NCBI RefSeq assembly: GCF_053078305.1
Contig: NZ_CP166879.1
Reading direction: 5' to 3' (one strand)
Length of the DNA stretch: 64,000 bases
Of this stretch, positions 20,179 through 21,072 are shown in pieces. The notes under the pieces are model-generated. The model did no database searches, was not told where the DNA came from, and saw only the letters and a program-made list of their open reading frames with translations. Position numbers and translations under genes: made by a program. Numbering within the stretch: position 1 is the first letter of the stretch; every line of letters starts with the position of its first letter.

Positions 20179-20610
20179 ATGTTTGGTATTTTCAAAAAGA
20201 AAACCCGCAGAGCAGCAACGGAAATTAAAAAGTTTGAGAAACGCGATCTGGCACAGGCGGTTATTAATGCTGCCTACCTGGTAGCCTATGCAGATGGTGA
20301 ATGTGAGGCTTCAGAGAAAGCGAAGATCGAACAGGTATTACGTAACCAGCCTGCGTTGTCCGCGTTTACGTCAGAAATTAATGCCATCAGTGCCACGATC
20401 ACAGGTCAGCTTGACACCAACTTTAAAATTGGTCGTCGAGCGGCGTTGCGTGAAATTGAAGATGTGAAACACGATACGCGTGAAGCGGAAGATGTGCTGG
20501 ATGTGGCGGTGGCTATTGCTGAAGCAGATGGTGAAATTGAGCCGGAAGAGCGTAAGGTTCTGGAAGAGATTGCAGGTGTTCTTGGCCTGCGACTGGAGAA
20601 CCACCTGTGA
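20179..20610 (+). CDS. TerB-like (tellurite-resistance TerB domain) protein
   Basis: 143 aa from MFGIFKKK; ...AAYLVAYADGE...AIAEADGEIEPEE...; AAAGGA RBS. Confidence 0.6.
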   Translation: MFGIFKKKTRRAATEIKKFEKRDLAQAVINAAYLVAYADGECEASEKAKIEQVLRNQPALSAFTSEINAISATITGQLDTNFKIGRRAALREIEDVKHDTREAEDVLDVAVAIAEADGEIEPEERKVLEEIAGVLGLRLENHL

Positions 20611-20769
20611 CGGTAAAACTGCGTCTGGCCGCTGTGGCACTCCTGCTGTTTCTGGTGGTGATGGTGGATTTCACCAGCAGGATCATGTCGGTGCTGGCGG
20701 ATGGAGTGCTGGTGGTCGGTATTGTGGTGGTGCTTTTTCCTTTGGTGAAAAAGGACATGCCAGGTAGTT
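20607..20769 (+). CDS. Possible small hydrophobic peptide coupled to TerB-like gene
   Basis: GTG overlapping TerB stop; 53 codons, mostly hydrophobic. Confidence 0.25.
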
Positions 20770-21072
20770 AGCCGGGTATCAGTCATGCCCCGAAAATTTT
20801 AAATGTCTCACAATTCAGACGGTTGACAGTTGTCTGTTTTGCGGGGAGTTTGTTAAAAGAAACTGGCATGGTGAATCCCCCTGAGCGGAGGGGCGACTGG
20901 TGCATTAGGTGTTATCTTTGATACCTAGGAAAGTGAACGCGCGGGTTTGGTTGCACCGGGCTGAACTCACCGGGAGGCACCCGGCATCATGCGCATGATG
21001 ATACAGATACGCGGCTTTAGCCCCTCTCCGGAGGGGCTTTTATATGAATTTTGTAAGATATGAGTAAACTAA

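Follow-up and report, generated by a model that had tools for sequence, protein, structure and literature searches.

The genes tciA and tciB are annotated in phage P1, together with a third small gene, tciC, in phage D6 and in Escherichia phage JLK-2012, and the PPyecE_EH1910 record names the corresponding product "TciA/TerB-like protein". Authors discussing the tci genes assign them resistance roles by homology only and call for tests, and in a CRISPR interference study of phage P1 tciA, tciB and tciC were all non-essential (PMC10695390). TerB itself is known from the ter operon, terZABCDEF, of which the Klebsiella protein KP-TerB has been solved (PDB 2JXU), and TerB-like domains thought to act at the membrane or to sense it are present in Dionysus DinB, Shango SngA and Bunzi BnzA. 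We analysed a locus of this kind in a 64,000-nucleotide stretch of contig NZ_CP166879.1 (RefSeq assembly GCF_053078305.1), referred to below as the window and numbered from its first nucleotide. The locus comprises a TerB gene, a short overlapping gene for a hydrophobic peptide and, upstream of both, a conserved structured RNA leader. We conclude with high confidence that the two genes are the already known phage tciA/tciB module, long catalogued and widely annotated; the gene pair itself is an ordinary annotation in the window and not a discovery. The leader is the only element of the locus that looks undescribed. The best overall explanation of the locus, which we hold tentatively, combines the identity of the pair as tciA-tciB, regulation by the leader and a membrane-tethered TerB module acting in lytic growth.

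The tciA-tciB pair

The tciA gene (20179-20610, + strand) opens with ATG and encodes a TerB-family protein of 143 amino acids; its Shine-Dalgarno (SD) sequence, AGGA, lies at 20167-20170, 8 nt 5' of the start. The initial annotation had proposed a stand-alone TerB-like protein at this place, to be checked by a profile search, and this identification was borne out: Pfam TerB (PF05099) matched TciA over residues 26-138 with an E-value of 1.2e-12, and a profile of TciA homologues matched 2JXU with an E-value of 1.1e-14, residues 13-137 aligning with residues 19-144. In PHROG the protein matched phrog_632, "tellurite resistance" (E 1e-69). AlphaFold2 predicted a six-helix domain with a predicted local distance difference test score (pLDDT) of 76-91 across residues 21-143, and the best Foldseek matches of this model were 2h5n and 2ou3, both TerB-like. 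With a net charge of +6.5, the N-terminal segment of 22 residues is strongly basic; it is also amphipathic, and the remainder is an acidic helical TerB domain with a net charge of -13. Two D-G-x5-E motifs (D39/G40/E46 and D117/G118/E124) are invariant or nearly so across TciA homologues of 42-100% identity. TciA thus resembles KP-TerB in its essentially full-length homology, its helical fold class and both acidic motifs, and we conclude with high confidence that it is a full-length homologue of ter-operon TerB and a member of the TerB family. A search of NCBIfam returned no curated-family assignment for the pair. Two other readings of the gene were rejected. TciA is not a DjlA co-chaperone: model NF006948 scored 29 bits against a cut-off of 162, matched residues 87-138 only, and TciA has no J domain. 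A start at the in-frame GTG at 20107, which gives longer proteins such as P0121 that reach into the leader and look like artefacts of sequencing or annotation, was discarded because this codon is not conserved across leader types and because the region carries compensatory changes of the kind expected of an RNA.

The tciB gene (20607-20771, + strand) starts with GTG and encodes 54 amino acids including the initiator, with an SD sequence, GGAG, at 20595-20598, again 8 nt 5' of the start. The tciA stop and the tciB start overlap as GTGA (20607-20610). A GTG-initiated small hydrophobic open reading frame (ORF) overlapping the TerB gene had been noted at the outset; its overlap and hydrophobicity stand, and its extent, given as 53 codons ending at 20770, is corrected to 54 codons ending at 20771. 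The peptide matches Pfam DUF3927 (E 3.4e-16) and phrog_1470, "TciB-like" (E 1.4e-24). Its hydropathy profile displays two hydrophobic segments, at about residues 5-20 and 26-47, with a short conserved turn between them; basic residues occur at both ends and the motif LLFLVV.VDFT[SG][RK].MS.LADG is kept across alleles. We therefore identify TciB with high confidence as a two-transmembrane DUF3927 peptide. A tblastn search of the phage collection with TciB as query gave no match, presumably because the BLAST low-complexity filter masks the hydrophobic query; hidden Markov model searches did find the family. The ratio of non-synonymous to synonymous substitution rates (dN/dS, pairwise Nei-Gojobori) is about 0.05-0.12 for tciA and 0.29 for tciB, and both are therefore translated genes under purifying selection.

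The two genes are translationally coupled. Within the loci collected for comparison there are 204 TciA-encoding places, and a small hydrophobic ORF lies directly 3' of tciA in 196 of them. The overlap measures 4 nt (GTGA) or 1 nt in nearly all of these 196 coupled loci, and in the jumbo-phage and Pseudomonas cases the small ORF begins 3-4 nt past the tciA stop. Given the GTGA overlap, the ratio of TciA to TciB should stay fixed. Two database proteins in which TciA and TciB are fused, P0125 and P0186, need frameshifts at the junction and are probable sequencing or annotation artefacts; because of this dependence on frameshifts we did not take them as Rosetta-stone evidence.

A query of 701 bp (window positions 20100-20800) matched 1240 of 5426 complete E. 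coli genomes, at a median of two and a maximum of eight places per matching genome, and the exact TciB sequence is present on 998 contigs. In the Prokaryotic Genome Annotation Pipeline (PGAP) the products go under the names "tellurite resistance TerB family protein" and "DUF3927 family protein". Erwinia jumbo phages (e.g. ChrisDB), a Klebsiella prophage, phage Fostie and an Actinobacillus phage likewise have a TciB-like or DUF3927 gene after a TerB gene, and Fostie and the Actinobacillus phage pPE4 carry the tciA allele of the P1 type. A search for relatives with the TciA alignment returned only sequences of at least 90% identity, and the distant contexts were fetched singly. More distant phage TerB genes, in Pseudomonas phage PMBT3 and in Vibrio phages, have no accompanying TciB. 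In Vibrio phage vB_VpaP-MS02 (locus L092, 378-1926) a gene for a TerC/Alx-family membrane protein, directly 5' of the TerB gene, replaces the TciB-like peptide.

The window pair has in common with tciA-tciB of phages P1 and D6 the families of its products (phrog_632 and phrog_1470, that is, TerB and DUF3927), the gene order, the overlap of start and stop, the sizes of 141-144 and 54 amino acids, the TciB motif VDFTS..MSVL[AS]DG and the adjoining tRNA genes. It differs in several respects: TciA is only 42% identical to the P1 protein and 51% to that of D6; the tciC gene of P1 is absent; in P1 and D6 the conserved leader is absent and the place directly 5' of tciA is taken by a partial STnc100-like element; and the P1 genes belong to the C1-controlled ban operon, whereas the window pair lies in a Q-dependent late region. 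Neither the window nor an annotated genome 99% identical to it contains terZ, terA, terC, terD or terE within about 8 kb on each side, and in the absence of terC and terD nearby the pair is therefore not part of a ter operon. Unlike TerB of the ter operon, TciA is encoded in a phage late region and has as its partner a 54-amino-acid peptide rather than the multi-pass TerC. The TerB-like domain is shared with DinB, SngA and BnzA, but the window pair is phage-borne and is found in lytic phages too. The best PADLOC match of TciA was to PDC-S48, with an E-value of 0.0022, TciB had none, and no gene for MAEBL, a pore-forming toxin or another extra partner was found within about 8 kb on each side. 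The pair is not a member of Shango, Bunzi or Dionysus.

A structured leader in front of tciA

A conserved structured 5' leader of about 130 nt, defined by alignments, RNAalifold and a covariance model, precedes tciA at 20051-20178 on the + strand. From about 20051 to the start codon its identity is 83-99% in phages whose TciA shares only about 43% of its residues with the TciA of the window, and its conservation is still recognisable in the jumbo phages of Erwinia and Salmonella. Leader sequences were gathered through the invariant 17-mer AGAGCCTTTCRGGGGTG, and 20 representatives were aligned. On the + strand of the window the structure consists of a hairpin, H0 (20053-20057/20064-20068, from RNAalifold), of a helix termed helix P1, in which CCACAGAG (20076-20083) pairs with CTCTGTGG (20124-20131), and of a long-range helix of 17 bp (20084-20101/20151-20169) that takes in the SD segment AAAGG at 20165-20169 and is termed here the anti-SD helix.

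Across H0, the anti-SD helix, helix P1 and a small hairpin, 97.4% of the cells were paired as compared to 36-52% in slid controls, for a structure that was partly derived from the same sequences. Compensatory changes on both sides were found at nine pairs, and the observed covariation was reached by none of 500 shuffles, a count made on related sequences and not a probability. The H0 stem is GCGCC/GGCGC in E. coli phages and ACATC/GATGT, CTGTC/GACAG or CACAC/GTGTG in jumbo phages, around a conserved loop. In helix P1, CCACAGAG/CTCTGTGG is exchanged for CCGTAGAG/CTCTACGG, and the R of the 17-mer covaries with a Y beside the SD sequence (A-U in 14 sequences, G-C in six). The minimum-free-energy fold is the SD-sequestering conformer in most leader sequences, and forcing helix P1 costs 7-18 kcal/mol. 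A local hairpin (P1'/HP2), which shares its 3' arm with helix P1, forms in every leader sequence. Helix P1 and the long helix cross each other topologically, and no linker separates their 5' strands; they are therefore probably alternatives and not the two stems of a pseudoknot.

The leader looks like a translational gate on tciA, because its most stable fold buries the SD sequence and because helix P1, which excludes that fold, and the local hairpin are compensated as well. It appears to be bistable, with the long helix hiding the SD sequence in one conformer and the helix P1 and P1'/HP2 folds standing against it, all of them kept by compensatory mutations. Candidate triggers for a switch are cleavage of the long hairpin by RNase III, co-transcriptional trapping, a ligand, or a phage or host factor.

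The covariance model found one copy in the window (20051-20190, 153.7 bits); P1, D6 and the Klebsiella ST13 prophage gave no match. Rfam 15 returned nothing for the leader at an E-value of 1 or below over positions 17000-24000, and over 20010-20215 only sub-threshold terminator-like or hairpin matches of at most 18 bits. The sequence was not found in the literature searched and the region is unannotated in all matching phage records. Among the matches listed by a scan with a 16-mer from the leader, most came from unrelated taxa, consistent with chance, and loci in Pantoea and Pseudocitrobacter were useful. One viral contig (L097, 4782-5724) has the same leader joined to an unrelated gene, located between a Q-like gene and lysis genes and encoding a 281-amino-acid protein with a signal peptide that resembles a periplasmic binding protein; the leader therefore behaves as a portable cassette. 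It is possible, although we are more inclined to doubt than to assert it, that the leader represents an undescribed class of phage cis-regulatory RNA, bistable and travelling as a cassette, that gates the translation of cargo on a signal. It would travel in front of cargo genes in lambdoid prophages and in the jumbo phages of Erwinia and Salmonella; it precedes two classes of tciA alleles with only about 43% identity to each other and, in L097, the unrelated gene.

Two further observations concern this region in other phages. In P1 (L003, 2848-2967) and D6 (L086, 1343-1463) the partial STnc100-like elements directly 5' of tciA, where lambdoid phages have the leader, score 33 and 40 bits, under the gathering score. 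In PPompW_132418 (L334, 4501-6004) and 10 similar PPompW records the IS110-family element ISEc20 is inserted within the leader, at a place corresponding to about window position 20094, and in these prophages the stretch from the leader insertion to the terminase genes is missing.

The cargo slot and its neighbours

The gene order around the pair is methylase, tRNAs, tciAB, STnc100 small RNA (sRNA), an iraM-like gene on the opposite strand and the nanS-p/yjhS esterase gene. The pair comes after Q and before nanS-p and the holin gene. The three tRNA genes (19758-20009, + strand; ARAGORN and Rfam) lie outside the module and are given as context; they have a CAT anticodon (tRNA-Ile according to PGAP in the 99%-identical genome), Arg-TCG and Arg-TCT. 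In the earlier reading the TerB gene began right after the tRNAs. It does follow them, but at a distance of 170 nt from the last one, a gap that holds a terminator and the conserved leader. The terminator-like hairpin, of the intrinsic type (20023-20040, + strand), reads GGCTCGC-TTTT-GCGGGCC followed by T6, just 5' of the module, and in other loci a terminator with a different stem sequence is found at the same place.

Downstream of tciB, an element of the STnc100 sRNA family (Rfam RF02076) extends over 20837-21049 on the + strand, with 140.9 bits against a gathering score of 47 (E 5e-32). It ends in the terminator at 21019-21038, the first one 3' of tciB, and could either be a gene of its own or form the 3' end of the tciAB transcript. 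STnc100 lies directly 3' of tciB in JLK-2012 and PPyecE_EH1910 also. The next ORF (21073-21408, - strand, 111 amino acids), which PGAP names "anti-adapter protein IraM" in the 99%-identical genome, is cargo in its own right, lying between the sRNA and the esterase gene.

The pair had been placed at a locus equivalent to that of the Shiga toxin genes, and the comparison with the Stx1a phage Stx1_14040 confirmed this: there stx1AB lies directly 5' of a segment matching window positions 20866-20992, in the STnc100 region, and of yjhS/nanS-p, and the Stx-equivalent position therefore holds. The pair thus resembles the late cargo of lambdoid phages, stx1 or stx2 and the morons between Q or the tRNAs and nanS-p, in occupying the identical slot with the same STnc100-like RNA and esterase downstream. 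Unlike stx cargo, it encodes no secreted toxin and has its own conserved SD-sequestering leader. The slot 5' of the leader is itself variable, since in E. coli 2013C-3181 (L004, 5418-7831), the closest E. coli match, an insertion of four additional genes, three hypothetical and one helix-turn-helix, separates the tRNAs from the tciA module. Concerning the tRNAs, tciAB often has such genes, of many different kinds, as neighbours in lambdoid phages, in P1 and D6 and in the Erwinia jumbo phages, where it sits inside a tRNA array. We considered a specific functional link between the two; tRNA genes occur at most 1.2 kb upstream in 67 of 131 distinct tciA contexts, only about half, and belong to more than 10 different sets, and the slot serves as a hotspot for cargo in general.

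Expression and possible functions

A consensus scan detected no sigma-70-type promoter on the + strand between the terminators at 20023-20040 and 21019-21038. As the genes lie downstream of Q, read-through by Q-modified polymerase would be the simplest source of a transcript, in keeping with established lambdoid biology. In phage P1, tciABC are found 3' of Oban, the operator under C1 control, in the interval before ban, and the ban operon is repressed by C1 in lysogens. TerB homologues are also present in phages described as virulent or taken to be so: the Erwinia jumbo phages, which we presume to be lytic and which have a TciB-like ORF in addition, and Pseudomonas phage PMBT3, which its authors call lytic and which has no such ORF. 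The missing promoter, the buried SD sequence, the P1 ban operon and the homologues in lytic phages together point to expression of tciAB in lytic growth rather than in the lysogen.

The mechanism that we favour, although we regard it as rather doubtful, is that of a membrane-tethered TerB module which would be made in lytic growth and would protect the infected cell. Transcription would accompany that of the lytic genes, in virulent phages as elsewhere, and would depend on Q-modified polymerase here and on the C1-repressed ban operon in P1. TciB would anchor TciA at the inner membrane, much as in the reported TerC-TerB partnership; tethering is proposed because the TciA N-terminus is basic and amphipathic and because TciB has two hydrophobic segments. 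A TerC-TerB complex has been reported, as cited in PMC12054061 and PMC11003894, and TerB has been described as amphitropic and is present in Dionysus, a defence system that acts at the membrane (bioRxiv 10.1101/2025.09.30.679545). Once at the membrane, TciA-TciB might stabilise the membrane or ion homeostasis against depolarising insults, such as superinfecting phage, pore-forming colicins and abortive-infection pores, until programmed lysis. Such a role would be accessory and not essential. A protective role would be in line with the phage-inhibition and colicin-resistance phenotypes of ter clusters, ter operons being cited as conferring resistance to phages and to pore-forming colicins.

Several points weigh against this account. 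The literature searched contained no experiment on TciA or TciB, and the functional labels are all based on homology. For ter operons, the phage and colicin phenotypes are cited as mapping to terZ, terC and terD and not clearly to terB. When TciA and TciB were modelled by AlphaFold2 as a fusion joined by a linker, with a paired alignment, the TciA part was well folded, but TciB appeared as one low-confidence helix and no usable interface was obtained. The promoter scan relied on a simple sigma-70 consensus, so a weak or alternative promoter, and hence expression in the lysogen, is possible. Finally, part of the 5' strand of the leader was set by the search pattern, so that its invariance appears greater than it is.

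The pair might instead be a lysogenic-conversion module, expressed from the prophage and giving the host resistance to phages, colicins, tellurite or oxidative stress, as its occupation of the slot used by stx and other morons and the moron-like terminators on both sides would suggest. The ter operons are cited as conferring the Phi and PacB phenotypes and tellurite resistance, the validated defence systems Dionysus, Bunzi and Shango contain TerB domains, and E. coli genomes very commonly carry tciAB, often as several copies. However, the same terminators, taken with the missing promoter and the lytic context, argue against a simple lysogen "moron": the consensus scan detected no promoter, the SD sequence is sequestered in the leader, the P1 copy lies inside a C1-repressed operon and homologues are carried by lytic phages, which protect no lysogen. 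Moreover, no PADLOC model matched at an E-value below 1e-3, partner genes of the TerB defence systems are absent nearby, and, according to a view quoted in the literature, TerB alone is not known to suffice for tellurite resistance. We consider this explanation unlikely; a resistance-moron function appears weakly supported and is not favoured by the context.

Another explanation starts from the paired D-G-x5-E motifs, through which TciA may bind a divalent metal and, with TciB or with TerC-family proteins of the host, adjust Mn, Zn or Ca for phage enzymes. Their near-invariance in homologues of 42-100% identity would fit such a role, as would the pairing of TerB with a TerC/Alx metal-homeostasis protein in a Vibrio phage, and ligand-dependent control would accord with a structured leader; terC has an effect on resistance to Zn and Mn, both of which induce the ter operon (PMC12054061). 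Against this, metal binding by TciA is only predicted, TciB with its 54 amino acids and two helices has no obvious transport capacity, and the leader matches no known metal riboswitch in Rfam; we consider a metal-handling accessory distinctly unlikely. Less likely still, to the point of being improbable, is a host take-over factor that would inhibit cell division by acting on the division or envelope machinery, the third meaning behind "tci". Division proteins are frequent targets of small membrane peptides. In the P1 annotation, inhibition of cell division is given as one possibility on grounds of homology, and a preprint on the P1 transcriptome groups tciABC with icd and kilA, but the label is inherited from toxicity phenotypes of ter clusters and not from tests of TciA or TciB, and neither protein is similar to known division inhibitors in Pfam, NCBIfam or PHROGs.

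Whichever function applies, tciAB is present in about a quarter of complete E. coli genomes, as well as in P1-like phage-plasmids and jumbo phages, and more than twenty years after it was named its role still rests on homology. With one TerB domain and one 54-amino-acid membrane peptide it is the smallest natural TerB system, and it offers a tractable handle on the function of TerB domains, a topical matter since several validated anti-phage systems contain them. If the gate formed by the leader is real, it would constitute a new phage regulatory RNA and would show how cargo in the Shiga-toxin slot stays silent until the lytic cycle.

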